Source: Macrostomum hystrix
Lineage: Eukaryota; Animalia; Platyhelminthes
DNA length: 64,000 nt
Assembly: GCA_950097015.1 (NCBI GenBank)
Contig: CATNEN010000001.1
Span: 27,032,001 to 27,096,000 of the forward strand
Direction of reading: 5' to 3'
The notes beneath the pieces were generated by a model, which was not told the DNA's origin, ran no database searches, and worked only from the letters and a program-made list of their open reading frames with translations. This document shows, piece by piece, positions 10,206 to 43,128 of the stretch. Within the stretch, counting starts at the first letter, position 1. Each line of letters opens with the position of its first letter. A program made the position numbers and the translations under genes.

Positions 10206-18763
<8,558 letters not shown>

Positions 18764-21064: not shown

Positions 21065-21184
21065 TTCTGCTGATGGATGATTGCTCTAGAACAGAGCAAT
21101 ATTAAAATGTCAGGAAAAATGCTTATTTTATAGAGTTAGGAATTTTAGCCAGCTTAAAAAATGAAAAACCCGAGCCGCTTTTGA

Positions 21185-24060: not shown

Positions 24061-25110
24061 ATGTTGAAATCGCCAATATTTAAAAGTTGTCACAAAGACC
24101 TCTATGAGGTGTGTTTGACCTGCGAAGCATGCACAATTGGGGGTGTCTCCCCGCGACACCATAGTAACAACACCTGCCAAGTTACTCGCTGGCTTGCCTG
24201 CAGCCAGTGCGGCATCGTGGAGCAGGTGAAGACCAAGCAGGTGCCTGCCAAGCACAAGGAGCATGAAATTGTGCCTTCGACGGAGAAGGAAAGGGAGGCC
24301 CAGCGCTGGAAGATCATCAGGGCTGCGAAGCAACTGCAAGAGAAACTGCGGCGCGACCAGCAAAAACAGCGGGCTGAGAATGAGCGGCCAACTGTACGTT
24401 CTGGTGTGTTCACCCAGGTATTCGAGGACGTAACCAATAGACGGCCAGAACCTGATGAGGAAGAAGCTGGCAGCGACAATGACTTCCTGATACTCAGCAG
24501 CCTCACTCGCAAAGGCGCGGCTGCGAACAAGCGCACTGCTGCTGATGCTGCACCGCAACATGGAGGAAAGCGCCTGCGGCATGACTCTACCCAGTCTGCA
24601 CTGCAGAGCATTGAGGCTGATGTGATCGGTCCTACAGCTTCTGTGACGGACGCCACTGTTGCTGCTGCAGCCATTCGGAGGCCGGAAGTTCGAGGCAAAA
24701 TGCTGCGGAGAGACGATGGGCCGAATCTGCAGGCTGAGTGTGAAATAGCGGAAGGACCATCGGCGCCGTCGCTGATGCTCGCGCCACCAGCTGTTCAGGC
24801 CAATGAGCAAGGAGTAGCCCTGCAGGCTGGTGCCGACGACATGGCTACTTCTGCTGCACTGGAGATTTTCGAGGCTGATCAGCTGTTCAGCACTGTCAAC
24901 CTGCTTGAGGGAGAGATTCCAAACTTTCTCTTCCTTGAGGCGCCAGAAGCGGGGCGTGAAGCTCGGAGACTCCATGATGCAGCAACTCAAACAGAAAGTG
25001 AGCTATGTACCGCATCATTTGTGTGCCTGCCGAGTATTGTTAACGCGCCATTTACAGTGGAACGCTTAGGTTTGGACAAAAGTATTGTTAGACCCTTTTT
25101 TGAAAGTTGA
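24061..25110 (+). CDS. Polinton ORF of unknown function, Cys/His-rich N-terminus; probably continues to 25273 through a frameshift in a T run
   Basis: 349-aa ATG-initiated ORF just inside the left TIR; no family recognised. Confidence 0.55.
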   Translation: MLKSPIFKSCHKDLYEVCLTCEACTIGGVSPRHHSNNTCQVTRWLACSQCGIVEQVKTKQVPAKHKEHEIVPSTEKEREAQRWKIIRAAKQLQEKLRRDQQKQRAENERPTVRSGVFTQVFEDVTNRRPEPDEEEAGSDNDFLILSSLTRKGAAANKRTAADAAPQHGGKRLRHDSTQSALQSIEADVIGPTASVTDATVAAAAIRRPEVRGKMLRRDDGPNLQAECEIAEGPSAPSLMLAPPAVQANEQGVALQAGADDMATSAALEIFEADQLFSTVNLLEGEIPNFLFLEAPEAGREARRLHDAATQTESELCTASFVCLPSIVNAPFTVERLGLDKSIVRPFFES

Positions 25111-25810
25111 AACTATCGCTGAGTGTAATTACGAGTGCAATAAGGAGCCACTGCGGATGCTCTATCAGCAGCGGGTAGTTGTCAAGTGTCAGGATTTTCA
25201 AAAAAGACAGTCGTTTTATTGCGGCCATGTTGCAATTTACGTTCAAATGTTGCACGACTCCCTTCCTTGTTGAATATAAAGCGTGTATAAATGAGTTATA
25301 TGTTATATCGTGTAAAATTGAGCAGAAGAGCTATTTTAGCAGAAGAGCGGACAGCAAGGAGATAGCCAGTGTAAAAAGCAATTGTAAGGCCTGTTTCTGC
25401 AGTAATGATTTTTCCTTCGAGTCGTAATCACAATTAATATTTGGCTGCTATTGTACATGAATGTAATAACTGCTCCATTTTTCCCTCGTCAACATTTTAC
25501 TTTGCTACATGCAGCGGACACACACGCACACACACACACATAGTGCCATAGGACGTGTTTTTTCCGCAAGCAAGGCTTTTTATTTATTATTTTTTCCTTT
25601 CTTGTCATTTTTTCTGTTTGTCACGTGCTGCAATATTTTTCATAATCGCTTTTGTCATTGCTATGTGCAGCGAGACACTGAAAGCACCGTACAGCTGTCA
25701 AACCTAGTGTCCTTATTTTCCACACTCGATGCGTTCTCAAAGCACTTTACCGTCGAGCTATTTAAGTTTGTTTATCTGTTTGGCACGTTATTAATAATGA
25801 TCTTTACCAC

Positions 25811-26956
25811 TGTAGTGTCGGCATGTTTTTTATAATGCGTATATTTCTACTTGTAGTAACTTATTCGCGCACGTCAATATTATGAATTATTTTAATGTAT
25901 CTTATAGGTTAGTTGTTTGTACATGCGCACCCCAGCCAGGCCTAACACGCGACCGGCCGGTCACCCCTGCTCTACAGCCAAGGCATCAGACTAGCCCTGG
26001 TCTGGTGGGCCCAACCAATGAGAGGACGGCTAGCCGATTGAAGTGAACCGACTTAAGTGCGACACCCCGAGCCGGGCCAATCAGCAGCCGGTTCGTTAAC
26101 CGGCAGGGTCGACCTGGCAGGAGAACAAGCGGCGCGGCCGGCACCCAGGCTTTGATGAGGGCTGGGGCGGGCGCTTGACTATAAAACTGACTATTGCGCT
26201 GAAATATTGTTCTCATGCGATTCTGGTCTCGCGTTTGACCTTGCTCTTGCTCTTGATCTTGATATTGTTACGCATCCTAGTAAATAGATACCGGGACAGG
26301 TAAACCGGTCCAACTAGTTAGTCAAAGAAAACCCCCACACTCAACCCCACGTCAGTAAGTAGCTTGCGCTGAGCTCGGTACGTCTGGCCAACTGCTGACG
26401 GAGTGTTAGATAGGGATTGGCAAGCACGGAAGCACTCTCCATATCGCCGACAATCATCGGTGGGACGCCGTCGAACAGACATTAGGTGTGGCACGATAGA
26501 ACTATCGTTGTGCCATAGTGCAGAAGTACTTGCTGGTCGCCTCGGTTTTATGTTAGGGATTCTGGTTAGGTTTCGCGTTATTTGTCTTGTTTGTTATAGG
26601 GACTATCTGTTTGTCTAGGATTTATTTGTGTTATTTATCGTGTCGTATTATCGAGTAGAGTTCGTGTTTTGTGTTGCGGTTATCGAGATTTTGTTAGTGC
26701 GAATTGTGAATTGGATTGAATTAAGTACAGTACCTGGCAGGGGACGAAAAGAGCGCTGCCAGGGGAATTGATCAGTGATCATAGCTTTCTCTTATTTACT
26801 GATTAACACTTAAATATCAGCTGTTTAGCTTGGAATTTGAATCGTCTTGTCTTCGTTAATTTCGAGTTGCGAAAAGGGAATCTCTCACAAAGAGTAGGAC
26901 ACCCGACCTCATTTAGGAATCTCAACGTAAAGAGAGACCTAAGTCAAAATATCACA
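25811..26956 (+). mobile_element. Solo LTR (1146 bp) inserted in the Polinton
   Basis: TGTAGTGTC...ATCACA ends, 4-bp TSD CCAC (25807-25810 / 26957-26960), internal CCAAT and TATAAAA. Shares start, size and a GTAGGACACC(C)GACC motif with the 62645-63804 LTR. Confidence 0.75.
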
Positions 26957-27464
26957 CCACTGCCTGCCCCATGCGACGAAATGCAACTGCCAAATATATT
27001 TTAAACTTTCAACTAATCCTTTCTTTGTGCTTTAACACGTAATCAACTTTTATAGTAATCAAGTAGCAAAAGCGCGTTTTTCCCTACAACTTTCTTCCAT
27101 TGTGCTTGCTCTGTTCTCCTTGAACTATTCAGTCTAAACCGATACCTTAAACCTGTGCTTTATGGATCCATGTCACTCAAATATACGTCGCACAGTTTGA
27201 ATGTTAACGTTCTTATCACCTTTGTTCAATCAATTGTCTTACTTCAGAATTTCTGTTGCCCACATCATAGTGAATGCTGCTAGGAAACTAGGTGATCTAG
27301 GTTAAGGTGATCTTTGGAATTCAGGAAAAATATCATTGCAGTATAGCAGCCTGCATGATACAAGAAAAACAAAGAAATAAATAAATACATATTTATACGC
27401 TTTTCCAATCTGCATTTGGGGCTCAAGTTTCAGCCCAGCTATCTCCCCGATTCCGTTGACACGG

Positions 27465-27780
27465 AAGAGCATTCCTGGCTAGAGACTGAATATTCGTGCA
27501 CAGAGCAAGTTGAGCACTCTTGGCAAGATCATGGCAACTCGTGGCTGGAGCCAGAGCATTCCTGGCTGGAAACTGAACAAGTTGAGCACTCTTGGCAAGA
27601 TCATGGCAACTCGTGGCTGGAGCCAGAGCATTCCTGGCTGGAAACTGAACAAGTTGAGCACTCTTGGCAAGATCATGGCAACTCGTGGCTGGAGCCAGAG
27701 CATTCCTGGCTGGAAACTGAACAAGTTGAGCACTCTTGGCAAGATCATGGCAACTCGTGGAGGGAGGAAGCGCATTCCTG
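27465..27780 (+). repeat. 72-bp in-frame tandem repeat (24 aa, ~4 copies) within ORF 27416-27892
   Basis: EQVEHSWQDHGNSWLEPEHSWLET repeated. Confidence 0.9.
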
Positions 27781-28132
27781 GACAGAGCAACCAAATCACG
27801 AATCGGCCGATGCAGATGAAGCAGCCGACGACCTCTCCAGGAACCGTTCCAGTCATGCGCAGGACAGCACAGCAACTCCAGGTAGGTTATGAAAGAAGGG
27901 GCACAATCGCGAAATGAAAAAAAAGAAAAAAAAATAAATGCGACAAAAGAAAATTTAAATAGTGAACTTTCTCCAAAACTGCAGTTGCAATTGCTTTTGT
28001 GGTTGCAATTGTGGTTTTAAAGAAAATCAGTTACTCAGCGCTTTTAATTTGGTAAAAATATGAATTTGTGGGAAATACCACTTCTGTAGTAAGTCTGATT
28101 TGTAAAAAAAATTGTTTTTCCCCCTCATTTAG

Positions 28133-30121
28133 ATTGCATCGCGGCTCTTCCTCTAGCTACTGCACACAATGGGACTCTGCTCGTCTACAGAGTCAACCCC
28201 TCGCTTCTGGAGACGCGCGTGAATGCCTTCGACATGGTGAGACAGTGCCAGGACGTGGTTGAGGGAGTGGCTGCGGAACATCGCTGTGAAGAGCGCTGCC
28301 GATCTGTTGGTCAACAGCATTCCAAGTCAGCAAAGCTTCTTCAACGAAGTGACAAAGTCGCCGTGCACAGATTAGGACTAAAGTCGCGCCCAACGAGCTT
28401 GGAGAGAGTTCGAATCCAAAAATCTCGGTGACTACATGATGGCCTACCTTGAACTCGACATCCGACAGCTTGCCGACATATTCGAGTCCTTCAGGCAGCT
28501 GAGTATCAAAGATGATGGACTGGATCCAGTCCATTTCATCTCGACACCTGGACTCTCCTTCAGCTCAGCTCTGAAGTCTACTGGAGCCACTTTTGAGCTG
28601 CTCACTGACAACACCATGTACCGAATGTTTGAGCAAGGCATTCGTGGCGGTATGACATTCGTCAATGTTCATTGTGCCGAAGCGCGCTCCGCTCATTTAG
28701 CCAATCCAGCCACTGTGCAGCAGCAGCAGCAGCAGCAGCAACCTGACAGAGCAGATCTACTTCCACTGGATGTGAACAATTTGAACGGAGTTGCTCTCTC
28801 AATGCCATTACCAGTCGGAGAATTCAGCTGGGTTGACGAAGAATTTCTCTCAACATGGACTGCCGACGCCTTCTTGAATCTGAGCGACGACTCGCCGGTC
28901 GGCTATCTGCTCGAAGTTGACCTGCAGTACCCAGATAACATTCACGAGAAGACTCAAGACCTGCCATTAGCGCGTGAGAAGGGTGTAGTTTCCTTCGACG
29001 ACTTTCCCGACTACATGAAGCAGCTCTGGCAGCATCTCAATCCGGATGGAAAATCGTACCATGGTTGCCATAAGTTGCTCTTGACCTGCTTTGACAAGGA
29101 GCGCTACGTCGTGCACTCGAATGTTCTCAAGTTCTACCTTCAGTATGGGATGCGCATCCAGAGGATCCACAGAGCCGTGCAGTTCAACCAGAAGCCTGTC
29201 TTTGCGCCGTACATACATAAAAACAGTGAGCGCCGCGCAAATGCCAGCAATGACTTTGAGCGCAACTACTACAAGATGAAGAACAATTCGCTTTTCGGGA
29301 AGACGATGGAAAATGTTCGAAAAAGAAGAGACGTTAGAATTTGCACCAATGATCAGCAGGCCAGAGTCTTGGCTTCGAAGCCTACTCTAAAGGACTTCAT
29401 CATCGTGAACGAAGATCTCTCCGTGTTCCAACTGGCCAAGACAAGTGTCCAGCTGGATCGCCCCGTGTACATCGGACAAAGTGTCCATGACAACTCAAAG
29501 TTGGTAATGTACAAACTGTTCTACGAAGAGCTGAAGTCGCGCTTTGAGAGCAATGCTGCCAGAGTGACACTGTGTGGAGGTGACACAGATTCGCTCTTTC
29601 TGTGTCTCGAGAATCTAGATGTCGAGCACTATGTCCTACCAAAGATGATGGAGTCCGGCCTGCTAGATACCAGCAATTACCCGGTGCACCACCCGCTCAA
29701 GTCAGACCGACTGAAGGCCAAGCTCGGCTGCCTGAAGGATGAATCAGCTGGTGAAAAGTTCAAACAGTGGATCTTGCTTCGTCCCAAGCTTTACTCTATG
29801 CTTGCTGATGAGGGCGGAGGCAGAATCAACAAGAAGGTGGCAAAAGGAGTTCAGAGATCTGTTGTGCGCACCGAGATCAGTCATCAGAACTACGTGGATG
29901 CATTTTATGCCCTTCAAGAGCTGACAGTCCGTGTCCGTCGCATCGGCAGCATACACCACAGAGTGTTCACCATCGAGCAATCCAAGCGAGCACTGACTGT
30001 CTGGGAAGACAAGCGAGCCTGGACTGATGCCAATGCAAGTCTTCCGTTCGGGCACTGCGCCCTTCGATGGAAATCACGGACTCTAGGGAGAAGGAAGCTC
30101 GAAGCGCCTCTCATTGCCACT

Positions 30122-30159
<38 letters not shown>

Positions 30160-30190
30160 TGAGCCGAAGCAAGCGCGCCTTGCAGACTGA
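28133..30190 (+). pseudogene. Protein-primed family B DNA polymerase (pPolB), disabled; intact ORF part is 28436-30190
   Basis: ExoIII YLELDIRQLADIFE, GIRGG, motif A LDVNNL, motif B KNNSLFGKTMEN, motif C DTDS, LRPKLYS, KVAKGV. In-frame stops at 28373 and 28379; ExoI/II region missing (deletion near 28280). Confidence 0.9.
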
Positions 30191-30754
30191 TGTCCGGTTA
30201 AAGTGTCAACTGTCCAATCAAACTTTTTTGGTAGCAATTCCTTCTGGTTTCCCCTCTTCTACTTTGTTACGGGTGATGGGTATTGATTATTTTGAAGAAC
30301 ATTTTTTTTCTTCAAACGATATATTTGCCTTCTATGAGACGAGTCGTGGATTAAGTTCACTTTTCTTGTGTGATGGGTGAAATTTGAATTTGTGCATGAA
30401 CTTACTGTACCTTTTGCTTGTAACTATTTGCGCTGGCGGCAGCAATGAAAGAAGAAGAATCGAATGAACTATATTCTTCACAAAATTTGAACTTTGGATT
30501 TTATTATTCCAAAAATTACATTGAATTCAAAGCGGATCCACTGCTCAGGCTTTCACAGAAATTTATTTCTTTTATTATTCAAGTCACTTAGTGAATCGTG
30601 TGACTCTAGCAGCTCTCACTTAATGAGAGCTGCTAGATTCTCAACATCAGAATGCAATTGTCGCAGAGAGCGAGCTCCGCTGAGAACAAATGAGCCGTTA
30701 TGGAAAAGCAAACATTTGCAAAAGCGGAGTTTACAGATTAAAGCAGAAAACGAT

Positions 30755-33700
30755 TGTGATAGCGGGGGTCTGCTCAGTTGTTCCGCTCAGAGTAATGTAC
30801 AGTGCAGGTGTACACCTGCACGCGCGCGTGTGATTGGCTGACGCTTTGTCAGACAACCTTTATTGTTGGCCTGCTATAAAGTTAAATAAAAGCCTCTGCC
30901 ATTGGGGGGGACTTACCCCCGAAGTGGAGTTTTCACAGTGGCGACTAGACTGAAACGATCCTGCGCAAATGAGTAGTGCAAGTGCACTAGGGCTTGTCGG
31001 CCCATACGAAGAAGGCTCTGAGCCGTGGCATATGTACCAAGCAAGGTTAGAACAATATTTTGTTGCCAATGACGTCACTGAGGAAGCAAAAAAACGAGCG
31101 ATTCTGCTGAGTTCATGCGGCAAGAAAGTTTTCCATCTGGCCTTCAGTCTTCTGTCTCCTGAACAGCCATCAGCCAAGAGCTACACCGAAATTTGCGATG
31201 CACTGAAGAGCCATTTTGAGCCTGAGGAGTCCGAGATCGTCCATCGTTACCGGTTCTACACCAGAAATCGCAGGGAAGGTGAGGGCGTCGCTGACTTCGT
31301 CGCAGACCTCCGAGACCTGGCTCGCGACTGCAAGTTCGGCGAAAGCCTGACTTCAATGCTTCGCGACAGGCTGGTGCTGGGAATCAACAACGATGGTGCT
31401 CAGCGGCGGCTGCTGGCCGAGCCCGATCTCCCTCTAGCGAAGGCATTGAAGCTGGCCCTGGCCCACGAGTCCGCCACCAAGGGCTGCCAACTGGTGTCGG
31501 GAGCGAGTAAGCCAGATCCATTCAGTCAGGAGTCCGTCAGCATTGTCAAGCAACAGCAGAAGTCGTCTTCGACAAGGAAGTGCTTCAGGTGCCTGTCAAC
31601 GAGGCATCTCGCTAATAAGTGCCCGTTCGCCACCCAGAAGTGCTACAAGTGCTCAAAGACCGGCCACACTGCGGCTGCCTGCAAATCCCAGTCGAAGGAC
31701 GATAGAAGAGAGGCTCTGCAGATGCAGGACGGCGAGGAAAAAGACAGCTGCGAGGAGGAAACGGCCCACTCTCTGTACCAGCTGTCCGGCAAGAGGGTAT
31801 CGAAGGTGCCGCCAATTACAACGATGGTGCGCATCAATGGCCGACCTGTTGTCATGGAAGTGGACACTGGAGCCTCCGTGTCCCTTGTATCCTCGAAGAC
31901 CTACAGGACCGTGCTCAACTCGCAGCCAGCACTGCAGCCTGCGTCCGTGCAGCTGCGAACATACTCCGGTGAGAAAGTGCCAATTGAAGGCTGCATCTGT
32001 GTTGCGGTGGAAGCTGCTGAAGCACCGTCAAAGACACTCAGCCTCCTTGTGGTTGCCGGCTGCGGATCCGACCTGCTCGGAAGAGACTGGCTGTCCGAGT
32101 TGCGGCTCGACTGGAGATCAATCAAGCAGGTGGCAGCTGCTCTTGAGGTGTCGCCCAGACTACAGCAGCTGCTCGACAAGTACAGCGATGTTTTTTTGCC
32201 TGAGCTAGGGAAGTACAACGGACCGCCAGTGAGTTTGAATATGAGACCCGATGCTCAACCTCGCTTTATGAAGGCCAGGAATCTCCCCTTTGCTTTGAAG
32301 GACAAGGTGGAGAGCCAACTGAACCGCGAGATCGAACAAGGAATCCTGGTGCCCGTGCAGCACTCCGAGTACGCATCGCCGGTGGTGCCAGTGCTCAAGT
32401 CCGACGGCTCTGTGAGGGTCTGCGCCGACTTCAAGCAGACCGTCAACCCGAACGTGGAGCCCGACTCGTATCCTCTGCCGCGGATTGAAGAGCTGTTCGC
32501 GAAGCTGACTGGTGGGCGGCTCTTCACTAAGCTCGACTTGTCACAGGCGTACATGCAGCTGCCACTCGATGAGGCCTCCCAGAGGGTGTGCACAATCAAC
32601 ACTCATAAAGGGCTGCTTAGGTATACGCGGCTGCCCTTCGGTGTCTCGCCAGCGGTCGGAATTTTTCAGCGCCGGATGGACTGCTTGCTGCAAGGAATCA
32701 CCAACACCGCCTGCTTCATCGATGACCTCATCATCACCGGGAAGGACGACAGCAGTCATCTGAACTCCCTGGAGCAGGTTCTGGAGAAGCTGAGCCAGGG
32801 CGGCCTCCGGTGCAAGCTGGAGAAGTGCCAGTTCATGCAGACGAGCATCAGTTATCTCGGTCACCGCATCGATGCCGACGGCCTGCACCCGATCAAAGAC
32901 AAGGTCGAGGCAATTGTCAGCGCTCCAGCTCCCAAGGACGCAACTCAGCTGCGCAGTTTCCTAGGCATGGTGAACTACTATGGCAAGTTTCTGCCTAAAT
33001 TGTCTCAAGTCCTGGCTCCGCTGCACCTGCTGCTGCGCGAGCAACACCGCTGGAACTGGGGCGCTGCTCAGAACGCCGCTTTCGAGAAGTGCAAGACACT
33101 GCTGTCCTCGGCTCCGGTATTGGCGCACTTTGACCCGAGCAAAGACCTGCTGCTCGAGTGCGACGCGTCCCCCTACGGTCTGGGGGCGGTCATCAGCCAC
33201 AGGATCGATGGAGCTGTCCGGCCTGTGGCCTTTGCCTCGCGTACGTTGCACGACGCTGAGAAAAACTACTCACAGCTCGAGAAGGAAGCCCTCGCGATAG
33301 TGTTTGCGGTTAAGAAGTTCAACGCGTACCTGTTCGGCCGCCCATTTCTGCTGGTGAGTGACCACAAACCTCTGCTTGGATTGCTGGCTGAGAACAAGGC
33401 CGTGCCGACCCTGGCATCCGGAAGAATTCAGAGGTGGGCTCTGCTGCTGTCTGGCTATAACTACCGCATGGTTCACCGAGCCGGAGCCTCACTGCTGTGC
33501 GCCGATGCCTTGAGTCGCCTGCCGCTGCCCGACAAGCCGGCGACTGTCCCGAAGCTGGCAGAGCTGGTCATGCTGATGGACCACCTGGATGATGGACCTG
33601 TCACGGCAGCTCAGATACGCGGCCTGACTCGAAGGGATCCTACGCTTGCCCGAGCTCTGCACTTCACGCAGATTGGCTGGCCAGAGCGGGTCAGTGACGA

Positions 33701-35335
33701 TCTGCTGCCATACTCCAAGAGAGCGGCTGAGCTCAGTGCGCAAGACGGCTGTCTCCTGTGGGGCGCTCGAGTGGTGGTCCCGGTTGGAGCGCGAGCTGCT
33801 CTGCTCCAGGTGCTGCATCAAGGTCATGCGGGGGCGTCTCGCATGAAGACGTTAGCCCGGGGTTATTTCTGGTGGCCAGGATTAGACTCGGAGATTGAAA
33901 ACCTGTCCAAGGCCTGCGCTGACTGTCAGGAGTTGCAGAACGCCCCGGCGCCTTCGCCAATGTTGTCGTGGCCGTGGCCTGACCGACCGTGGTCTCGAGT
34001 GCATATCGACTATGCGGGTCCGGTGTCTGGCAGGATGCTGCTGGTCGTCGTCGATGCCCACTCAAAGTGGCTGGATGTGCATGTGGTGTCGTCAGCGACC
34101 TCAGCTGTCACCATCCAGAAACTCCGCTCCAGCTTCGCGACGCACGGGTTGCCAGATGTGCTGGTGTCGGACAATGGGCCCAACTTGGTCAGCGAGGAGA
34201 TGTCCGACTTTCTGCGGAAGAACGGCATTCAACACGTGCGCGTTGCCCCCTACCATCCGGCGTCCAACGGCCTGGCGGAACGAGCTGTCCAGACGCTGAA
34301 GCGGTCCCTGGAGAAGCAGCGCGAAGGCTCCTTGGAGGATAAGGTCGCCCGGTTCCTGCTGAGCTATCGGGTCACTCCGCATGCGACAACTGGTGTGGCT
34401 CCCTGCGAACTCCTGATGGGACGGCGACTGTGCACGTTGCTAGATCGAGCTCGGCCAGACCTGGGAGCAAGAGTACAGCGTAAGCAAAGTCTGCAAAAAG
34501 AGCACCACGACTGCAAAGCTCGATCCCGGACTTTCGAGACTGGGGACGCTGTACTGGCCAGAGACTTTGGAGCCAACGGAGGTCGGTGGAAGCCGGCGCG
34601 AGTTGTCGGTGCCGCCGGTCCGGCCTCCTACCTGTGCGGCTTCGATGGCGACGACCGAGTGGTGCGGCGGCACGTCGACCATGTCCGCGGTGGTCCTGAG
34701 CAGCCGCGGCCTACCGGAGCTGGCGTGACAGACGGTGCTGCCGACGCCAAGGCCGCACCTGAGCCTGAAGCTGCGATGCCGGCCGTGGACGAGCCGCCTG
34801 ATCTGGCTGCTCCTGGAGACCCTGAGATCGACGGGTCTCTGCGCCGATCGTCGCGAGTTCGACGTCCCCCGGAGCGCCTGAGCTACGGGTGACGTCATCT
34901 GTGGAAGAGACTATTTTGATTGACTGTAGTGTTCGGACGATTATTTTCAGATTTGGTACTTTGTTATGGTTATGGGTTATTTTCCATTATATGGTTGTGT
35001 CGTTGCTTTTCTGTCTTGCGTTGCGTAGTTTTTGTGCTGGTTAATTAGTATTTGTTATTAGGTTAATTATTGTGTTATTGTGCCTCACTATAAAATGCGT
35101 TGTTCTATTGTATTCTCTTGCGATCCCTGATCCTCATGTAGATGGGGAGGGATGTGATAGCGGGGGTCTGCTCAGTTGTTCCGCTCAGAGTAATGTACAG
35201 TGCAGGTGTACATCTGCACGCGCGCGTGTGATTGGCTGACGCTTTGTCAGACAACCTTTATTGTTGGCCTGCTATAAAGTTAAATAAAAGCCTCTGCCAT
35301 TGGGGGGGACTTACCCCCGAAGTGGAGTTTTCACA
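30755..35335 (+). mobile_element. Intact Ty3/Gypsy LTR retrotransposon (Gypsy-2) nested in the Polinton
   Basis: 183-bp LTRs 30755-30937 and 35153-35335 (one mismatch), 5-bp TSD ACGAT, PBS TGGCGAC, PPT GGGGAGGGA. Confidence 0.97.
30969..34892 (+). CDS. Gag-Pol polyprotein, 1307 aa
   Basis: Two CCHC knuckles, DTGA, RT FIDD, RNase H, integrase HHCC and DDE; no interruptions. Confidence 0.96.
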   Translation: MSSASALGLVGPYEEGSEPWHMYQARLEQYFVANDVTEEAKKRAILLSSCGKKVFHLAFSLLSPEQPSAKSYTEICDALKSHFEPEESEIVHRYRFYTRNRREGEGVADFVADLRDLARDCKFGESLTSMLRDRLVLGINNDGAQRRLLAEPDLPLAKALKLALAHESATKGCQLVSGASKPDPFSQESVSIVKQQQKSSSTRKCFRCLSTRHLANKCPFATQKCYKCSKTGHTAAACKSQSKDDRREALQMQDGEEKDSCEEETAHSLYQLSGKRVSKVPPITTMVRINGRPVVMEVDTGASVSLVSSKTYRTVLNSQPALQPASVQLRTYSGEKVPIEGCICVAVEAAEAPSKTLSLLVVAGCGSDLLGRDWLSELRLDWRSIKQVAAALEVSPRLQQLLDKYSDVFLPELGKYNGPPVSLNMRPDAQPRFMKARNLPFALKDKVESQLNREIEQGILVPVQHSEYASPVVPVLKSDGSVRVCADFKQTVNPNVEPDSYPLPRIEELFAKLTGGRLFTKLDLSQAYMQLPLDEASQRVCTINTHKGLLRYTRLPFGVSPAVGIFQRRMDCLLQGITNTACFIDDLIITGKDDSSHLNSLEQVLEKLSQGGLRCKLEKCQFMQTSISYLGHRIDADGLHPIKDKVEAIVSAPAPKDATQLRSFLGMVNYYGKFLPKLSQVLAPLHLLLREQHRWNWGAAQNAAFEKCKTLLSSAPVLAHFDPSKDLLLECDASPYGLGAVISHRIDGAVRPVAFASRTLHDAEKNYSQLEKEALAIVFAVKKFNAYLFGRPFLLVSDHKPLLGLLAENKAVPTLASGRIQRWALLLSGYNYRMVHRAGASLLCADALSRLPLPDKPATVPKLAELVMLMDHLDDGPVTAAQIRGLTRRDPTLARALHFTQIGWPERVSDDLLPYSKRAAELSAQDGCLLWGARVVVPVGARAALLQVLHQGHAGASRMKTLARGYFWWPGLDSEIENLSKACADCQELQNAPAPSPMLSWPWPDRPWSRVHIDYAGPVSGRMLLVVVDAHSKWLDVHVVSSATSAVTIQKLRSSFATHGLPDVLVSDNGPNLVSEEMSDFLRKNGIQHVRVAPYHPASNGLAERAVQTLKRSLEKQREGSLEDKVARFLLSYRVTPHATTGVAPCELLMGRRLCTLLDRARPDLGARVQRKQSLQKEHHDCKARSRTFETGDAVLARDFGANGGRWKPARVVGAAGPASYLCGFDGDDRVVRRHVDHVRGGPEQPRPTGAGVTDGAADAKAAPEPEAAMPAVDEPPDLAAPGDPEIDGSLRRSSRVRRPPERLSYG

Positions 35336-35849
35336 ACGATTCAGGTTCATAAGTTGCGCTGGGTAGAATGTTGCGCAAATCAGACAGCGATAAAGCACCG
35401 CATAAGTCCAGGTTGCCCTTTGCACTAATAGTTTTAATTCGAACACAAATGGATTGATGAGGCAGCAGTTGAACCGGCACTCTGCGATGCAGCATAGCCA
35501 CGAAGCGACGGGCAGCCCTGGCCGCGTCTGCGTAGCTCTTGGCGCCACAGATGCTCAGTTGCCCAGTGGGGTAGAGCAGCAGAGTTACCCTGGGATTCCG
35601 CATCTGCTTGATGAGCACCCGGGGCCAAACGGGTCGGTAGATCACATGCGCCATGCTGAGAGCCAGTTCCCTTAGAGGCAGCTGGGCGCCCCCGCCTCCA
35701 ACCAGTTCCAGATCCACTCCGCCAACCAGGTTGGTGACACTCAGTGTTGTGGTTCCTGCACTCATTTTGAATACTTTGACTGCTGATGTCGCTGAAACTC
35801 TTGTGCCATGGACACTGCTCGCTTCTTAAGCTGATGCAGAACTTTGGCC

Positions 35850-36277
35850 TTAGCCAACTGTAGTACAGCAATGCATTTCTCACAGCACAGCCGCTAGCTG
35901 ACTCCTTGGTGGAAGGTGAGCTCAGATCGTCTAGGTTGAATACCTGTCTGCCTAACAGCTCAGTCAGAAAAGAAGATTTTTCCTCTCCGCTTGTCCAAGT
36001 GACTTCCGCCTCCAATGCTCACAATGTCATCGGCCAATTGAAAATACGGCCGGATTCCATCGGTCCACTTGAATTTATGCTGATGTTTCGTGAGCTGACT
36101 GTAGTACATTCGCATGTCGGGTGACACTCTCTCCCACGGATGCGGTGGGGCGTACACATGGTGGGAAATGTAGTAGCTTCCCTTTTTTACTTCGAGGACT
36201 GCCAGCTCCTTCACGATGAAGTTATCATTCTCTCCATCACACGGGAAGCCTTGAATGTCTATGTAGTTCATGCTCAA
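35850..36277 (-). pseudogene. Polinton DEDD/DnaQ-like exonuclease-family protein, frameshifted near 36010
   Basis: IDIQGF..FIVKELA..H..APP..W..H...W..G..PY, continuing in another frame as GEEK..L..NLDDL..CAVRN..W. Pattern recalled from invertebrate Polintons; 3' end uncertain. Confidence 0.6.
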
Positions 36278-36320
36278 GCGGGTGCCTTGAAACTAGCAAA
36301 ATTAGATTGTGCTTCCTTTC

Positions 36321-36989
36321 TTAAATACTGTTTCTCCCCCTGTTCAACCTCAGCCATGCAGACTTGTTGCCCAATCCTTTGAGTGAAGGCTGTGCATCTT
36401 CAATTGGATAAAAAATTTCTTGATGTACAGATTTTCCAACAGCTGACATAGGCACATTGAGATTTTTTTGGCGAAGCAAGTCACTGAAAGCGGGCCATCC
36501 AACAGGCTGACCAGAACTTTTTGAGTCCTTCACTGTGTGCAGAATCAAATCGAAAATGTTTGAGTTAGGAATCGAGTTCCCAGAAATGTTCACCTCTCTA
36601 TTATCGGACACCCGGATAGCAGACTGGCTGTCAGATAGGATGGCCCATAGACTCTGAGCCCTCGGTTTGAGCTTCTGTGGCACTGACTGGTAGATCTTTT
36701 CTTCCCAGCTTCTTTGAGGCATCTCAGCCTTTATCAACTTCGCTTTCTTCTCTTCTGATGCAGCTTCCTTTCCTGTCTGCTTTCGCTTTGCCAGCAAGCT
36801 TTGCATTGCACTCTGGTACAGGGCTGTCTTCATATCATCTGGGCAGTCTTGGGCCAACAGGATATCATCGCATTTCATCTGTGCCTGCTTTATGGCCGTG
36901 TCACTGACAGACTCAATGGGCTTGGCACTCCTCCTCAGCATTTCATACTCGGACCTTGAGATCAGAACCATCTCATTGAATTTGTGCAT
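36321..36989 (-). CDS. Conserved Polinton protein of unknown function (222 aa)
   Basis: Motifs IPNSNIFDLI, PVGWPAF, NVPMSAVG; lies in the tightly packed virion-gene block. Confidence 0.7.
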   Translation of the reverse strand: MHKFNEMVLISRSEYEMLRRSAKPIESVSDTAIKQAQMKCDDILLAQDCPDDMKTALYQSAMQSLLAKRKQTGKEAASEEKKAKLIKAEMPQRSWEEKIYQSVPQKLKPRAQSLWAILSDSQSAIRVSDNREVNISGNSIPNSNIFDLILHTVKDSKSSGQPVGWPAFSDLLRQKNLNVPMSAVGKSVHQEIFYPIEDAQPSLKGLGNKSAWLRLNRGRNSI

Positions 36990-37296
36990 CTCTTTTCCTC
37001 TTCTTTTTCACAAGTTTCAGCAGAGTGGGGAGGATTCTGATAAAAGAAGCTTTGAGTAAGTCACTCTGTTTTCTTTGCCGGGCAATTCTGCGGATTATAT
37101 TTTTAGATTTCAATAGCGCTGTCTTTTCAACAAGAGAAAATGGCAAATTCTCTTTCAATAGGTTGTGGCAGGCCTCGACAAGAAAAGTGCAAGCTTCTTT
37201 CGGACACAGCTTTATTATTGCGCGCTTGAGGCTAATTGTATATTTGTGTGAGGCAAGGACTTCAAATAAGCTTTGATGAGCTTCGAACACTTCCAT
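36973..37296 (-). CDS. Small basic Polinton protein (107 aa)
   Basis: EACHNLLKENLPF..K..L...K..IRRIA pattern; overlaps the next ORF in operon-like packing. Confidence 0.65.
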   Translation of the reverse strand: MEVFEAHQSLFEVLASHKYTISLKRAIIKLCPKEACTFLVEACHNLLKENLPFSLVEKTALLKSKNIIRRIARQRKQSDLLKASFIRILPTLLKLVKKKRKRDAQIQ

Positions 37297-37339
37297 AGTC
37301 GCAATAATTCAGGCTAATAGCCTTTCTCAACCTATATTC

Positions 37340-37989
37340 TTAAGCATAAACCAGATGTGGCCTCTGATTGGGCAGAATTCTGGCTCGCACTCGCAGCTCA
37401 TCGGGGGTGCAAGGGTGAAAGTCCAGAAACAGGTAGCTCCCCCTGCCCTGCGCTGTGACATGCTTGAACACCTCAAGCAGGAAGCCAGGCTTCTCTGGAA
37501 AGCACTGCCTGCCCAATGCAGCGATCTGCAGCTGGTCTCTGGGTTTTTAAGGATCACATAGTACATCGTGTTCAAGCTCATGGTCCGCAACTCCTTGCCC
37601 TTGAAAAACATATTCTGAGTGAGCATTACAAGAAAGCATGGCAGGTGATGGGCGAGTCCAGTGAAAATATTTCGCATTGAAGCAGAGTTAGAAGTTTCAT
37701 CAATCATGTCATCAAAAATGACCAGATCATTGCTCATCAAAGTGCTCTCAAAGTTAGTGGGTAATCCCTGATACAATTGCACACCAAGACTGCTCAGCTC
37801 TGCATGCGCTGGCTGTGCGATCCCATAGTACCAGAGCACTCTCCCAGGCTGGATGTCGAATAATACATCCCTGTACTGTATTAGATGCTTCACGAAGGTT
37901 GTCTTTCCAGCATTGGTGGGTCCGCAGACCATCATGCAGCTGCCCTGTCGCAGGCGGACATCATAGTATAACACTCTTTCTGCTTCCAT
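37340..37989 (-). pseudogene. FtsK/A32-like genome packaging ATPase, one frameshift near 37540
   Basis: Walker A GPTNAGKT, Walker B LVIFDD, LTQNMF..RTMSLN..KNP. Shifted frame gives DQLQIAALGRQCFP..YLFLDFHP..LRVR..stop at 37340. Confidence 0.9.
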
Positions 37990-38006
37990 CTCTCTTGGGC
38001 TTTATT

Positions 38007-38548
38007 TCAACTATTTCTTTTTAGCCATAAACCTCTTTTTCTTAAGCTGGCTTCAAACTGACAAAGCATTCTGTCATTCAACGGGCAGTTTTCTTTCACG
38101 TGTAGATTTCGCAGAATCCATTCGAATGATCGCTTCAAAACAATTCTTTGATATGCAAAATAGAGACAGAAAAGTCCGCACTTGTCCGACTGACTGCATT
38201 GGATTCGGTTAACATTGCAAAGCATGCGGAAAGGAAACTTGAACTTGTTAGCAAAAAATGGTGGATGGCACTCAGAGTCTGTGCGTTCCAACCGAGAGAA
38301 TCAAATAATTCAACTACATTTCCATTGCCAACAAAACATGCAACCCAGTGTCCAAACGAGACGCTATGTTTTATCAAGAAGAAGCTGATAATTCTGTTGT
38401 GATTGGGAATTTTCTCCCTTCTTCCTTCATCCCGGTTTATTATCCAGGTCTTTTGCTTTAAGCAAAGGGTGACTATCAAGATTCGATTGCTGGGCAGGAA
38501 GGATCTAGCAAGAGAACGCAGCTGAAGGGCATCCATATCAACTTTCAT
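38007..38548 (-). pseudogene. Adenain-like (C5) maturation cysteine protease, frameshifted near 38290
   Basis: HWVA and FDSLG in one frame; IQ...SDKCGLFCLYF in the next. Confidence 0.85.
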
Positions 38549-39831
38549 TAAGATGAATAGTCCAGCAATAGCTCCCTGTGCTTGGTGACCTCAATCAGTG
38601 AGTCATACACACACATGACAATCAGGGACACGGCTTCATCCAAGGCCTGTCGGAACCGAATCTCCAGCCGCAGGTTTCCCTCCTTCTGCCCGTACCACAG
38701 AGCCGCTCCCTCGGGTGTCAGATCGAATGCGAACACGGTGTTCTCGTTTGAGAAGAGTTGGTAGGGAATCGATGGAACCGAGTTGGTGTGGCTCGCAGAT
38801 TGACAGCTTTTCAGGTAGTGCAAATACTCTCTGACAAACGAATTGTTCTCAGGTGTAAATGCCCCGTGGCACATGGATTCACCCCCTTTCTTGAGAGCAA
38901 GCTGACTCAGGTTGAAGTTTTGGAACTGGAACGGGCTGGAATGATGGTGCCCATTGAAGGCTCGGTGGTTGACGAAGGCCAGCATGATGAATTTCGGGAG
39001 CTTTCCGTGCGTGAATCCTTCAATATTTTTTGACTGAATTCCCTGGGGCAGGATGAAGTTTTGCATTTCAGTTCGCTCAATTGGGTAGAGCGCATTCTGA
39101 TTAGCCAGCCCCTGCTCGTGAGCCAAGCTGATGTGGGGCAGAACTTTGACTCGGCGAAGATAGAGGATGAAGTGCGATATTTCCATCCTGTAGGCGGTGT
39201 TGTTGGCGGCTGGAGCTCTGATTCCAAATGCTCCATCACTGGGCACCAGTTTGATGTGCAGGTGCAAATTGTTCAGCAGAAACACTGGGCACTGGAAAAT
39301 GTCGCTAAGGAGTGGTCCCGCATATTCCCTCCATTGGGAGGTCCTGTGGTTCTCAGTGTGGTCCTCATCAGCTGAGTCGGGTTCCAGGAAACCGGCAGGG
39401 TGAAATTTGAGTTGCTGGGCATCGGATGAGCTCATCAGTGCTTTGAAGTAGGCATGGTACGGGTACAGCTGGTCACCCCCAGAGACGATTCGCTGGTTAA
39501 TGCTAACAATTACATCTGAGAATGCTGTAGATAGAACAAAATTTTCCGGATGCACATTGCTGTCTCTGCGGTCTGCAACAACTCCATCCTCACCCAGCTC
39601 ATCCTCCCTCATCAATGCTCCATTCAGTCTCACAATGCGGCACCGAATGTAGAGAAATGAGTTAACTAAATCAGTGTACTCATCAGCTGATTGGTGGCAG
39701 TCAAATTCAATGGGTGAGTTTCCGACAATGGAATTCACAGGATGAATGTCAATATAGGCAGATTTCTCAATGCAAGTCTGCAGCACAGGTGTCTTGAACA
39801 GGTCGAGCCTGGGGTTGAATCCGAAAGCCAT
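38548..39831 (-). CDS. Major capsid protein (double jelly-roll, hexon-like), 427 aa
   Basis: LDLF..P..QT.IE..YIDIHP..PIEF..YTDL..LY..FSDVIVSIN..YPYHAY..FNG...SPF.FQNFN..FAFDLTP..GNLRLEIRF; intact. Confidence 0.9.
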   Translation of the reverse strand: MAFGFNPRLDLFKTPVLQTCIEKSAYIDIHPVNSIVGNSPIEFDCHQSADEYTDLVNSFLYIRCRIVRLNGALMREDELGEDGVVADRRDSNVHPENFVLSTAFSDVIVSINQRIVSGGDQLYPYHAYFKALMSSSDAQQLKFHPAGFLEPDSADEDHTENHRTSQWREYAGPLLSDIFQCPVFLLNNLHLHIKLVPSDGAFGIRAPAANNTAYRMEISHFILYLRRVKVLPHISLAHEQGLANQNALYPIERTEMQNFILPQGIQSKNIEGFTHGKLPKFIMLAFVNHRAFNGHHHSSPFQFQNFNLSQLALKKGGESMCHGAFTPENNSFVREYLHYLKSCQSASHTNSVPSIPYQLFSNENTVFAFDLTPEGAALWYGQKEGNLRLEIRFRQALDEAVSLIVMCVYDSLIEVTKHRELLLDYSS

Positions 39832-39834
39832 TGT

Positions 39835-40215
39835 CTATGACAGAGAGTCCAGTACGCACTTCACAGTTTTGCTGCTGACTTTTCGCTTCCTTCTTGTTGC
39901 TTTCTTGCTCTTCCCAGTTCTCTTCTTCTTAAGCTTTTTCTTGCTTGAACTTTTCTGCTTCCTTCTTGATCTGCTCTTCTTTATCTTGTTGTCTTTGCAA
40001 TGATTACTATTACTTTTTTTAAACTTTCTTTTCCTTCGTTTTGATTGCATAGAAGAGTTTTTAGCATTGGGGAGACCAGCAGCAGCTAGCGTTGATGGAG
40101 CAGTCGATGGGGGCTGGAACGTCATGAGTCCCGGTGAGCTCCCGCAGCCGTACAGTGCAGGCTGCTTGCCAGTTCGCGCACCCGAATACTGCCGAATAAG
40201 CTGCTGGTAATTCAT
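39835..40215 (-). CDS. Lys/Arg-rich putative virion core (DNA-condensing) protein, 126 aa
   Basis: Extremely basic C-terminal half; located between the minor and major capsid genes. Confidence 0.6.
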   Translation of the reverse strand: MNYQQLIRQYSGARTGKQPALYGCGSSPGLMTFQPPSTAPSTLAAAGLPNAKNSSMQSKRRKRKFKKSNSNHCKDNKIKKSRSRRKQKSSSKKKLKKKRTGKSKKATRRKRKVSSKTVKCVLDSLS

Positions 40216-41027
40216 TGAATTCTTTTCTCCCGAATCTGAACTGTCAGCAGAACGGGACTGCAGGACTGAGCGGCCAGAAGGCTACCAAAAATATCTCGCA
40301 GTTGAACTCGAAGGCTGTGTAAAAAATTGATCCTCGGAATTGGAAAGAAGATAGTTTTCTTAAACACTTGACTCAGATAGTTTCCCCATTCTGCATCAGG
40401 TTTCATTCGAACTGTTCTCAGCAGTGAGTTGCCGTTGCAATTGCTCGACTCAACGATGCTGCAGTGCACATTAATCAGATTGGTGCGCGGGCAGCCGATG
40501 CAGCGCTCTGAGACAAGCCGCCCAGGTCGAACTTTCACTGATCCCTGGTTGCTGAATCCAAGCCATTGCAGAATCTTGCTAGGCGGAAGATGCAGCTCTG
40601 CCTGCACTGTGTTGTTCTGCACTACTGTTCTCGAGTTTTGAATGTCAATTTTTATTCCAAAGTCCCTAGCATCACCGCGACGTCCCAGCAGACCTGATTC
40701 ATCAGCCTCCATTTCAGCATCTCTGTCGCTCCTCGCATCAAAGAACAGAGACTCAGAGTTGGCCAACAGCTCATTCAGGCACTCCACCAGCTCCTCCACT
40801 CTAGCAAAGCGTCCAGGTTGAAGAACCAGGGCCTCGTGCTCTCTTCCAACTGAGATAGTGACGCAGTAAGGTTCGTCAAGATTGTACCATGAAGCAGGCA
40901 GATGGATTTCAACCAGACCTGCCTCATAGTCCACATTTCGATCCAAGTAAATAGGTGAAGGCAGGTGAAAATGAAAGTCACTAGAAGTACCTTCAGCATG
41001 TTCACTGTTGATAACAATGTTTCTCAT
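40212..41027 (-). CDS. Minor capsid protein (penton-like); first ATG at 41027
   Basis: SDFHFHLPSPIYLD..YEAGLVEI..P.SWYNL; C-terminal VHCSIVE..LLRTV..LRVQLRD..G. Confidence 0.8.
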   Translation of the reverse strand: MRNIVINSEHAEGTSSDFHFHLPSPIYLDRNVDYEAGLVEIHLPASWYNLDEPYCVTISVGREHEALVLQPGRFARVEELVECLNELLANSESLFFDARSDRDAEMEADESGLLGRRGDARDFGIKIDIQNSRTVVQNNTVQAELHLPPSKILQWLGFSNQGSVKVRPGRLVSERCIGCPRTNLINVHCSIVESSNCNGNSLLRTVRMKPDAEWGNYLSQVFKKTIFFPIPRINFLHSLRVQLRDIFGSLLAAQSCSPVLLTVQIREKRIQ

Positions 41028-41064
41028 AATAGAAAATAACTTTATCACAGAAATAGGTTTACTA

Positions 41065-42153: not shown

Positions 42154-42506
42154 GGCTTGCTTTCTCTAGCATGAGCAATTCATTTTCTTAAGTTTTTTGT
42201 AATTCACTGTAGCAGAAAATCGACCGGCGTCGAAAAACAACCAGCACCATACAAATGCAGAAGCAATTGTGAACACTGAATAAACGGGAAAAAACATTAA
42301 GTAGCTGGCTTTTAACACTGTCAAAATTACAAATTGAGCAGCTGATTTGAGCACAAAAGCAGTCAGACGCATTAGAGCACACTGTTCAGTCACTCATCGA
42401 AGTGCAGCCTGGTAAGCTTCATTGCCTCCTGCCGACGAAGTGGAAACGGCTGTTTGCGCTTCCTGCTACCGCTGGCCGCCGCAGCCGCAGCCGCCCGGAA
42501 CTGGTA

Positions 42507-43128
42507 TCACACCGGATCCTCCCGCAAGTCCGAGTCCCGAGATGGGATCCGTCCATCCCCAGCGCTAGCCACGGGAAGCGGCGTGGATGTGGCAGCCTCG
42601 TTGTCGATCTGCAGCATTGTAGGCGAGCCGATCTCGTCTACGTCTCCACCATTGCCTTCAGATTTCTCGGCCCCCAGGATGGGCTTCGTGTCCTGCTCTT
42701 CCTCATCTGACTCAAGCTCGTACTTCGTCCGCATGTCCTTGAAGGGAGCCGACAGCTGGCCGTCTATCCATGATGCGTTGTGCCACAGCTTCTTCCACAG
42801 CGGTGGGGTCAGCGGTACGGCGTTACGCTTCATGAATTCTTCGCAGCAGTCCTCAGGCAGTCCGCTTGAGCCAGATGATGCCGTCCCTGACTTCGATAAA
42901 CTTATCAAAGCCTAGTTTCACCACCTTGCACTCGCTATTGAGAGCAGACACTACGAGCGACCGCTTCAGTTGCTTCAGCTTTTCCCATTGGCAAACATTC
43001 AGGTTGAAGCCAGGGACGCCAGGTTTAAGACTTGCAGTGCTGCCGTGGCGGTAGAACTTTCTAATCGCTATGTACTTCAAGCCTTCGTACTATTGAACCT
43101 GAATCTTATAACCGTCGCAGATGTCCAT
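42507..43128 (-). pseudogene. Tandem PC4/Sub1-like ssDNA-binding protein (stop at 43090-43092, frameshift near 42865)
   Basis: MDICDGYKIQVQ*YEGLKYIAIRKFY..LKPGVPGFNLNVCQWEKLK resembles the PC4 core; second weaker copy ..NAVPLTPPLWKKL; acidic tail. Confidence 0.65.

Follow-up and report, generated by a model that had tools for sequence, protein, structure and literature searches.

Organization of the Polinton locus

The window analysed is a stretch of 64,000 nucleotides from Macrostomum hystrix (contig CATNEN010000001.1, positions 27,032,001 to 27,096,000 of the forward strand), and all the coordinates given here are positions within it. It holds a Polinton/Maverick element with AGT termini, terminal inverted repeats and a 6-bp target duplication (TACATC at 23537-23542 and 44053-44058), which carries both a protein-primed polymerase B (PF03175) and a retroviral-type integrase (PF00665), and the empty target site of this element is present in two DNA runs (X2 and X6). 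Its features are the following:

23543..44052, no strand assigned: Polinton/Maverick, 20,510 nt including the Gypsy insert, with AGTAGT termini and terminal inverted repeats
24061..25110, plus: 349-aa ORF, N-terminus Cys/His-rich, remainder acidic and of low complexity, without family match
28056..30190, plus: protein-primed DNA polymerase B, C-terminal part (PF03175 1.4e-9)
30616..30750, minus: TBP-like gene piece B, the final 44 codons and the stop
30755..35335, plus: young Gypsy LTR retrotransposon in the TBP gene, 4,581 nt, with LTRs, target duplication and gag-pol ORF
35337..35765, minus: piece A of the TBP-like gene, codons 1-143, which cover repeat 1 and continue in repeat 2 as far as the YEPE stirrup
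35960..36271, minus: exonuclease-like (RNase T fold) gene, from the fold of relative P0012, directly upstream of TBP and frameshifted here
36321..36989, minus: 222-aa ORF, with relatives in gene models P0009 and P0011
36973..37296, minus: 107-aa ORF from the ORF list, no assigned family
37327..37989, minus: packaging ATPase, frameshifted in this copy; Walker A, with weak matches to Pox_A32 (E 0.028) and FtsK (E 0.043)
38007..38548, minus: cysteine protease, adenovirus type, from HW...D and QC...CG motifs only; split over two frames
38548..39831, minus: 427-aa ORF, likely major capsid protein, from size and position
39835..40215, minus: 126-aa Lys/Arg-rich ORF, likely core protein, from composition
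40212..41027, minus: 271-aa ORF, likely minor capsid (penton), from position, without family match
41065..42132, minus: integrase with chromodomain, 355 aa (PF00665 1.2e-13, PF00385 7.5e-5)

The 427-aa ORF contains what we take to be Polinton capsid motifs; it has no Pfam, PHROG or PDB sequence match, and its single-sequence structure model (pLDDT 29) is unusable for recognizing a double jelly-roll fold. The 271-aa ORF presumably resembles a penton, and the protease, whose start codon overlaps the capsid stop codon, is assumed from its motifs to belong to the adenovirus-type family. The start of the 222-aa ORF likewise overlaps the gene before it, the 107-aa ORF. The relative of the exonuclease-like gene, P0012, reaches an Atlas TM of 0.86 against a cluster of mostly Preplasmiviricota viruses and of 0.69-0.73 against PF00929 clusters. 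Polymerase B has a frameshift at the 5' end and falls short of the usual length, and this copy of the Polinton is dead. No TFIIB was matched by Pfam among the ORFs of at least 100 aa, and no RNA polymerase of its own was found in the element.

The TBP gene and the Gypsy insertion

The TBP gene is the final gene of the minus-strand block that begins at the integrase, as the initial annotation had placed it, and both of its pieces match PF00352 when scored alone. Piece A, which opens with an ATG at 35765 and ends in the letters YEPES, scores E 2.6e-13 (50.1 bits, cut-off 22.9) and E 2e-12 against the TBPs of the PDB; piece B, whose codons run from 30750 to 30619 and include LLFHNG, followed by the stop at 30618-30616, scores E 3.3e-4 (20.9 bits, slightly below the same cut-off) and lines up with the C-terminal ends of intact relatives.

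The DNA between the two pieces is a Gypsy element with LTRs of 183 nt each (one mismatch between the pair), and an unbroken gag-pol ORF of 1307 aa (30969-34892), and it is flanked on each side by a copy of the 5-bp duplication ACGAT. An intron was rejected as the cause of the interruption. The earlier claim that removal of the Gypsy and of one ACGAT copy restores an intronless ORF of 187 codons with both TBP repeats holds, and the coordinates agree. Because the insertion is very young, the clean frame in this copy does not by itself point to selection.

Conservation within the Polinton family

The fold was computed on the intact natural relative P0001, PAA46374, in which the full two-repeat saddle is present: the whole TBP core is matched with a VIA Z of 17.3 over 175 residues, where the next fold reaches 7.3, with a Foldseek E of 1e-11 and an Atlas TM of 0.87. 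Sister copies carry the gene at the same place. It is uninterrupted in the contigs of all four DNA runs (three studies), where the Gypsy is missing from the site, and a single 12.4-kb contig covers the element from the integrase through TBP. In Macrostomum lignano, three gene models (P0009, P0011 and P0012) hold TBP with the same neighbouring genes, at identities of 85, 74 and 84%, against 63-67, 56 and 66% for the neighbours in the same models; a 40-aa piece of the capsid, at 90%, exceeds the TBP figures. Further relatives are P0002-4, P0013, P0106 and P0178-80.

Of the three results that the initial annotation had named as overturning it (lack of a TBP fold, absence from sister copies, and neutral evolution as a captured host pseudogene), none is borne out: the fold is that of TBP, sister copies have the gene, and it is conserved no worse than its neighbours, or above them. 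The excess of silent changes is weak (17 of the 40 differences listed out of 128, p 0.02-0.10); no stop codon occurs among those 40, and within codons 29-68, a span counted post hoc, 11 of the 15 differences listed are silent. Identity to cellular TBPs is about 25% (22-27%), against 70-85% within the family, and more distant relatives at 30-50% identity carry the same residue signature.

In a tree taken without host TBP and TRF2, with an unsettled bootstrap and group labels from rough motifs, the nine family rows form one clade (support 100/96) that does not group with the TRF2-type row P0015; given the absence of these host sequences, the unsettled bootstrap and the long family branch, the donor of the TBP cannot be named from it. 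No relative turned up in viral contigs, whether these were scanned with the TBP alignment, with the capsid ORF or with the integrase, and scans of metagenomes gave none or just eight unrelated cellular TBP loci, without a Polinton gene by tblastn. TBP is a regular gene of this Polinton family, not a stray capture.

Residues of the viral TBP

All the residues pointed out at the outset are present, namely YRPVWP and LLYPTG in repeat 1, the kept YEPESF and LLFHNG in repeat 2, and the change of the second conserved Asn to Thr. The repeat-1 motifs and the Asn-to-Thr change are common to the intact relatives, and decay was rejected as the source of these odd residues, which are family-wide. In the yeast numbering, which apart from an anchor is our assumption, the alignment has the family keeping Asn69, Phe190, Phe207, Glu186 and Glu188, while Asn159 is Thr in all eight full-length rows, Pro191 is Ser or Asn and Val203 is Lys, so the canonical combination of both central Asn with Pro191 is broken. 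The four Phe of canonical TBP are not retained either: in repeat 1 of the family rows the second Phe is replaced by Tyr and the first by Trp/His or Pro, the choice between Trp and Pro varying with the placement of a one-residue gap. The acidic TFIIB stirrup, EPE, occurs in 8/8 full-length rows and in piece A of the window.

Pro191 bars bases other than T at position 1 of the TATA box (Patikoglou 1999, as reported in PMC1636458), where base 2 is described as read by residues 194, 203 and 205, and G as tolerated at base 6. PMC4180970 states that TRF2, with Phe-to-Trp and Phe-to-His changes, fails to bind TATA, and that the trypanosome TBP without the first two Phe belongs to an organism without TATA promoters. 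The repeat-1 Phe changes count against a TATA-like reading by the viral TBP.

The (C/T)TTAAGAA box

An 8-bp box, (C/T)TTAAGAA, which is new relative to the initial annotation, lies 48-149 nt upstream of eight of the 11 co-oriented start codons, including that of TBP itself. Its variants are CTTAAGAA and TTTAAGAA, and the copies are as follows, all on the minus strand:

35823..35830, CTTAAGAA: 65 nt ahead of the TBP start codon
36318..36325, TTTAAGAA: 54 nt ahead of the exonuclease-like gene, overlapping the stop codon of the 222-aa ORF
37337..37344, CTTAAGAA: 48 nt ahead of the 107-aa ORF
38039..38046, CTTAAGAA: 57 nt ahead of the packaging ATPase
39926..39933, CTTAAGAA: 102 nt ahead of the likely major capsid gene
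40357..40364, TTTAAGAA: 149 nt ahead of the basic 126-aa ORF
41073..41080, CTTAAGAA: 53 nt ahead of the likely minor capsid gene
42185..42192, CTTAAGAA: 60 nt ahead of the integrase

The other three co-oriented ORFs have no box; it is missing ahead of the 222-aa ORF and the protease, and also ahead of the plus-strand polymerase and 349-aa ORF. With the leading pyrimidine required, the 8.0-kb arm holds eight boxes on the coding strand and none on the opposite one, and the remaining 55 kb of the window hold one on both strands together. Shuffled sequence gives a mean of 0.73 boxes, with none of 500 shuffles attaining eight; the box lies 20-130 nt upstream of 7/11 start codons (p 4e-5) and ranks first in an unbiased 7-mer ranking, all these figures coming from the same copy in which the box was discovered. 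The arm contains no TATAAA.

The boxes begin with C in six cases and share the core TAAG in all eight. From position +22 of the box to the start codon, a boundary picked after inspection, the 412 nt contain no ATG (5.5-8.3 expected), and between +8 and +22 there are four, affecting three genes. As the boxes fall in differing reading phases of the upstream genes, a protein motif was rejected as their origin. Five of them are 14-151 nt within the upstream coding sequence, and the 20 nt before the boxes are 15-55% pyrimidine, with no pyrimidine tract. The entry titles of 1qna and 1qn5 name crystals of wild-type TBP on boxes carrying T(-30) or G(-26), and for this reason the box may be readable by the host TBP on its own.

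Comparison with known TBP systems

A close parallel in the literature covered here is that of the beta/gammaherpesvirus vTBPs (KSHV ORF24, EBV BcRF1), which are described in PMC12529657 as having a TBP fold with a more polar DNA face and as using a variant TATA box (TATTWAA, late) ahead of virion genes with the host Pol II. The Polinton also has a variant box, although a different one, before 8/11 co-oriented ORFs. On the other hand, ORF24 is large and depends on five further viral factors, and it keeps the four Phe and the equivalent of Pro191 and lacks the TFIIB glutamates (same source), whereas the Polinton protein, known from sequence, has no visible partners, has lost Pro191 and two Phe, and keeps the glutamates. 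It is a bare core of about 190 aa (183-224 aa in the family) in place of the multi-domain architecture of ORF24, BcRF1 and UL87, with their Pol II-binding and extra DNA-binding domains; the herpesvirus rows of the viral fold search were 577-1005 aa, with weak matches.

Cellular TBPs (yeast 1ytb/1rm1, human 1cdw, archaeal 1mp9/1ais) share the two-repeat saddle over the full length. The Polinton TBP differs from them in having neither N-terminal extension nor introns, in the changes Asn159Thr, Pro191Ser/Asn, Val203Lys, Phe116Tyr and Thr124Cys, in the altered Phe99, in the loss of the TFIIA-side Glu93 position and in a shorter repeat-2 loop. TRF2/TLF (TBPL1) is also a TBP paralogue with altered intercalating residues, but the signature of three altered Phe given for it in PMC4180970 is absent from the Polinton family, which keeps both repeat-2 Phe (YEPESF/LEPEIF), where P0015 has His at the first.

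Nucleocytoviruses mostly encode their own RNA polymerase. The TBPs of Nucleocytoviricota and mirusviruses (ASFV B263R and others) show that the fold occurs in large DNA viruses (PMC5825884), and they show 5-21% identity, with weaker matches than those of cellular TBPs. In print, TBP already labels a gene of a virus in this size class, in the Fig. 5 legend of Starrett 2021 (PMC8502044), where the virus is a MELD virus with a mid-size linear dsDNA genome and an adintovirus-like polymerase; it is a figure label only, neither promoter nor mechanism is described in section 3.4, and the terms TBP, TATA and Macrostomum do not occur in the one supplementary file. Where PMC10675990 and PMC12220804 mention TATA, they refer to other elements or to a name.

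Proposed mechanism and alternative explanations

The stand-alone 187-aa TBP-fold protein probably binds (C/T)TTAAGAA, instead of a TATA box, ahead of the eight genes and recruits the host TFIIB and Pol II. The initial annotation had proposed a promoter-recognition factor of altered specificity, an overall reading that is partly supported and now has a candidate target box. The loss of Pro191 together with the kept TFIIB glutamates fits, at the level of sequence, a box-reading factor that recruits this host machinery. The box would then act as a core promoter, with transcription starting some 25-30 nt downstream; repeat 2 of the viral TBP would lie on its 5' half, where the loss of Pro191 may admit C at base 1 and the changes near Val203 may suit T at base 2, and the Glu186/Glu188 stirrup could dock the host TFIIB. 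Given the box ahead of the TBP gene itself, positive feedback may arise, in which slight leaky transcription would flip the virion block on, and the polymerase arm, without a box, would presumably be read first by host factors. Against this reading, a TBP behind its own box requires a starter, and three of the 11 ORFs have no box.

More tentatively, a 16-kb integrating virus of animals may possess a private, self-amplifying transcription system made up of one 190-aa TBP and one 8-bp box, with the host TFIIB and Pol II. If true, the element would pass from transposon-like quiet to particle production through a bistable switch, no viral TBP system smaller than this one would be known, and TBP and promoter would form a natural pair of altered specificity, in which the changes at Pro191, Val203 and Asn159 can be set against those of the box bases as a natural experiment in TATA recognition. 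A TBP encoded by the element and matched to its own box would also bear on how animal Polintons switch on their capsid genes, helper-free or not, in a host group that includes a laboratory model.

It is unlikely, by comparison, that the box serves as a promoter for the host TBP/TFIID and that the viral TBP acts as a decoy or a shut-off factor, binding TFIIB or other TBP partners but not reading this DNA. Such a role would agree with the conserved glutamates in all eight full-length rows and the DNA-facing changes in both repeats, with the failure of TBP relatives with altered repeat-1 Phe to read TATA (PMC4180970), and with the tolerance of wild-type TBP for a single substitution at box position 2 or 6; however, an arm without canonical TATAAA repeats one fixed variant eight times, six of these begin with the C that host Pro191 disfavours, and the changes of the DNA face are themselves conserved, as the silent differences in codons 29-68 indicate.

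The TAAG core is reminiscent of the baculovirus late promoter, and helper-virus dependence has been proposed for many Polinton-like viruses, so that the box might be a late promoter for a helper virus polymerase, with the TBP gene serving another role. This is a good deal less probable: starts within TAAG would place the four short upstream ATGs in the leaders of three genes, beyond +22 there is none, and the Polinton supplies its own TBP.

Flatworms use spliced-leader trans-splicing, the genes are tightly packed and every box lies close to where the upstream gene ends, all of which could suggest an RNA signal (a trans-splice acceptor or 3'-end) by which a long transcript would be divided into messages of one gene each, with TBP unrelated to it; this is very improbable, since the pyrimidine tract before AG is absent, cleavage at five boxes would truncate the upstream coding sequence, and ATGs follow within 22 nt in three genes.

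Finally, a pseudogene of host TBP or TRF2, captured and carried as a functionless passenger, is hardly credible in spite of the long branch, the weak silent-change excess and the tree without host paralogues, given a gene without stops among the differences listed, conserved above its neighbours at a fixed position, far closer to its family than to cellular TBPs and sharing its signature with relatives at 30-50% identity.

The TBP gene and its Polinton

The Polinton-encoded TBP homolog of the initial annotation, there described as interrupted by a Gypsy insertion, is split into pieces of 143 codons (35337-35765) and 44 codons (30616-30750 with the stop), both on the minus strand. They flank a Gypsy element of 4,581 nt, whose 183-nt LTRs are one base apart and which is bordered by an ACGAT duplication. 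Its identity is upheld by PF00352, which matches both pieces when these are scored separately (2.6e-13 and 3.3e-4). Given that the insertion site is uninterrupted in the contigs of all four runs compared (three studies and three organism codes; nine runs listed), including a 12.4-kb contig that joins integrase and TBP gene in one stretch with no Gypsy break, the gene is found in sister copies and the Gypsy insertion is an accident of the window copy.

Features of the Polinton
23543-44052: Polinton, AGTAGT termini, 6-bp target duplication (23537-23542, 44053-44058)
~23560-23850 and 43300-44050: bounding inverted repeats
Plus strand: protein-primed polymerase B (PF03175)
Minus strand: integrase with chromodomain (PF00665, PF00385)
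Minus strand: likely minor capsid, basic ORF, likely major capsid, protease, packaging ATPase
Minus strand, after the ATPase: two unknown ORFs, exonuclease-like gene, TBP gene

The capsid and protease labels are our presumption from position and motifs, and neither the searches nor a fold confirmed them. Two of the runs, X2 and X6, show an empty site, with the right flank running on into the left flank, so that the insertion is polymorphic and young. Four genes of the window copy carry frameshifts (ATPase, protease, exonuclease-like, polymerase); at several of the one-base frameshifts (35960-38548, 28056-28436) none of the contigs listed agrees with the window, which means either decay of the copy or a (long-read) assembly error.

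A 349-aa ORF (24061-25110, plus strand) lacking family matches, with a Cys/His-rich N-terminus (CxxC...CxxCG), an acidic low-complexity remainder and no (C/T)TTAAGAA box, is a candidate early regulator. Between it and the polymerase, some 3 kb (25110-28050) contain six TATAAA sites and, around 27500-27800, tandem repeats of 60 nt, with no recognisable gene and no evident N-terminal half of the polymerase. In the right terminal repeat a 71-nt unit is tandemly repeated about six times (43530-44030), and the left end has fewer, rearranged copies.

Relatives and conservation

Macrostomum lignano supplies the closest named proteins, which makes that flatworm or a close relative the probable host. 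A word-indexed search gave six matches among 251 candidates (mutual identity 69-87%), a full scan gave 465, of which four fell below 1e-30, followed by one at 51% and then by cellular TBPs, and a profile search gave 14 among 6,495 candidates, ten being family members with identities down to 30%. In three mis-joined gene models of M. lignano, the TBP is spliced to one or other of its neighbours (capsid end, ATPase, 222-aa ORF, exonuclease-like gene), which shows that other copies have this gene order too. The public models P0005, P0009, P0010, P0011 and P0012 are Polinton pieces joined to host exons, some of them named TATA-box-binding protein, and could be mistaken for host TBP paralogues.

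Identity to the window in the three mis-joined models is 85, 74 and 84% for the TBP, against 63-67, 56 and 66% for its neighbours, which argues against the neutral captured pseudogene considered at the outset; a 40-aa capsid piece reaches 90%. The excess of silent changes is weak: of 128 nucleotide differences in the 143-codon piece, the 40 listed comprise 17 silent and 23 residue-changing ones, with no stop, where a silent share of 27-32% is expected (p 0.02-0.10). Codons 29-68, counted afterwards, have 11 of 15 silent. That the TBP gene is a mere passenger is scarcely credible.

In a tree of 59 rows (nine family members, nine short divergent TBPs and 41 cellular cores, mostly drawn at random from 124), the family forms a single clade (100/96) separate from the sole TRF2-type row; these rows single out no donor. 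Eight short divergent TBPs, each some 180 aa long and found on contigs of up to 47 kb (P0157, P0139, P0046, P0110, P0120, P0124, P0149, P0156) are possibly further viral TBPs; P0157, with Thr at the second Asn, adjoins the family on a long branch (85/90).

Fold and residues

The predicted structure of P0001, an intact relative (pLDDT 68), resembles complete TBP cores (Foldseek E 1e-11), with Z 17.3 to TBP and 7.3 to the next fold, and an Atlas model reaches TM 0.87 to TBP cores, so that the fold is that of TBP; viral TBPs fit the P0001 model less closely than cellular cores. In yeast numbering, anchored here, all eight full-length rows of the family have retained Asn69, Phe190 and Phe207, together with the EPE stirrup, and change Asn159 and Val161 to Thr, Pro191 to Ser or Asn, Val203 to Lys, Phe116 to Tyr and Thr124 to Cys, while Phe99 becomes Trp/His or Pro according to the placement of a one-residue gap. 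Judged from these alignments, the alterations are fixed across the family. Decay as their source is ruled out, since all eight rows share them. By this signature, the protein is neither a canonical TBP nor a TRF2.

A recurrent box upstream of the genes

Inspection of the sequence 5' of the start codons revealed a recurring (C/T)TTAAGAA. The 8.0-kb arm with the co-oriented genes carries eight of these boxes on its coding strand, at distances of 48-149 nt from the start codon that follows (48-65 nt for six of them), and the remaining 55 kb has a single one. Dinucleotide shuffles (500) averaged 0.73 boxes and never gave eight, and the presence of a box at 7 of 11 start codons has p 4e-5 against random start positions. 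Three ORFs lack it: the protease and the 222-aa ORF, which each overlap the preceding gene at their start, and a doubtful 108-aa ORF. This arm contains no TATAAA; the polymerase arm has no box, and six TATAAA sites with no clear tie to its genes.

Four ATGs follow the boxes within 22 nt and none beyond, where 5.5-8.3 are expected, the pattern that would be left by a TATA-like element if transcription began 25-30 nt 3' of it. The boxes lie in differing phases of the upstream genes and have no pyrimidine tract, and their being an RNA signal is very unlikely.

Taken as an 8-bp TBP site, the box departs from TATAWAW in having C at position 1, T at position 2 and G at position 6. According to PMC1636458, TBP repeat 2 touches the 5' half of the box, Pro191 allows only T at position 1, residues 194, 203 and 205 determine position 2, and G is accommodated at position 6. 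Positions 1 and 2 oppose residues altered in repeat 2, a suggestive fit that comes from one Polinton copy and was partly chosen after looking.

Proposed mechanism

The TBP is observed; as for a mechanism, the viral TBP probably binds the box and hands on to host TFIIB and Pol II, in which case integrase, capsid, packaging and the TBP gene itself would be activated jointly. The box 5' of the TBP gene would make this switch self-reinforcing, and weak recognition of the box by host TBP might start it. Less probable is that host TBP is the reader of the box and the viral TBP a decoy, and that the box belongs to a helper virus as its promoter is improbable.

Going by PMC12529657, this system would work similarly to the herpesvirus vTBP with TATTWAA; the Polinton protein is not a vTBP member, being a bare core with another box, with the TFIIB glutamates kept and no viral partners seen. 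PMC4180970 describes TRF2 and trypanosome TBP, in which Phe is altered, as not acting through TATA boxes, a caution against a TATA-type reading. A 'TBP' label in a MELD virus appears in Starrett et al. 2021 (PMC8502044), and literature searches, which covered mostly papers free of subscription, turned up no account of a TBP in a Polinton together with its cognate box.

Other elements

Further Gypsy elements lie at 5160-9095 (open 1311-aa frame, 31% identity to the TBP-interrupting Gypsy) and 57674-61641 (frameshifted, 62%). An exon at 10206-10799 (plus strand) encodes glutaredoxin and the beginning of a pyridine-nucleotide oxidoreductase domain, the combination of thioredoxin-glutathione reductase, and is followed by long minisatellite arrays (10800-22000). 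At 45465-53135 (plus strand) lie two pieces of LINE type, whose domains are endonuclease, reverse transcriptase and RNase H.
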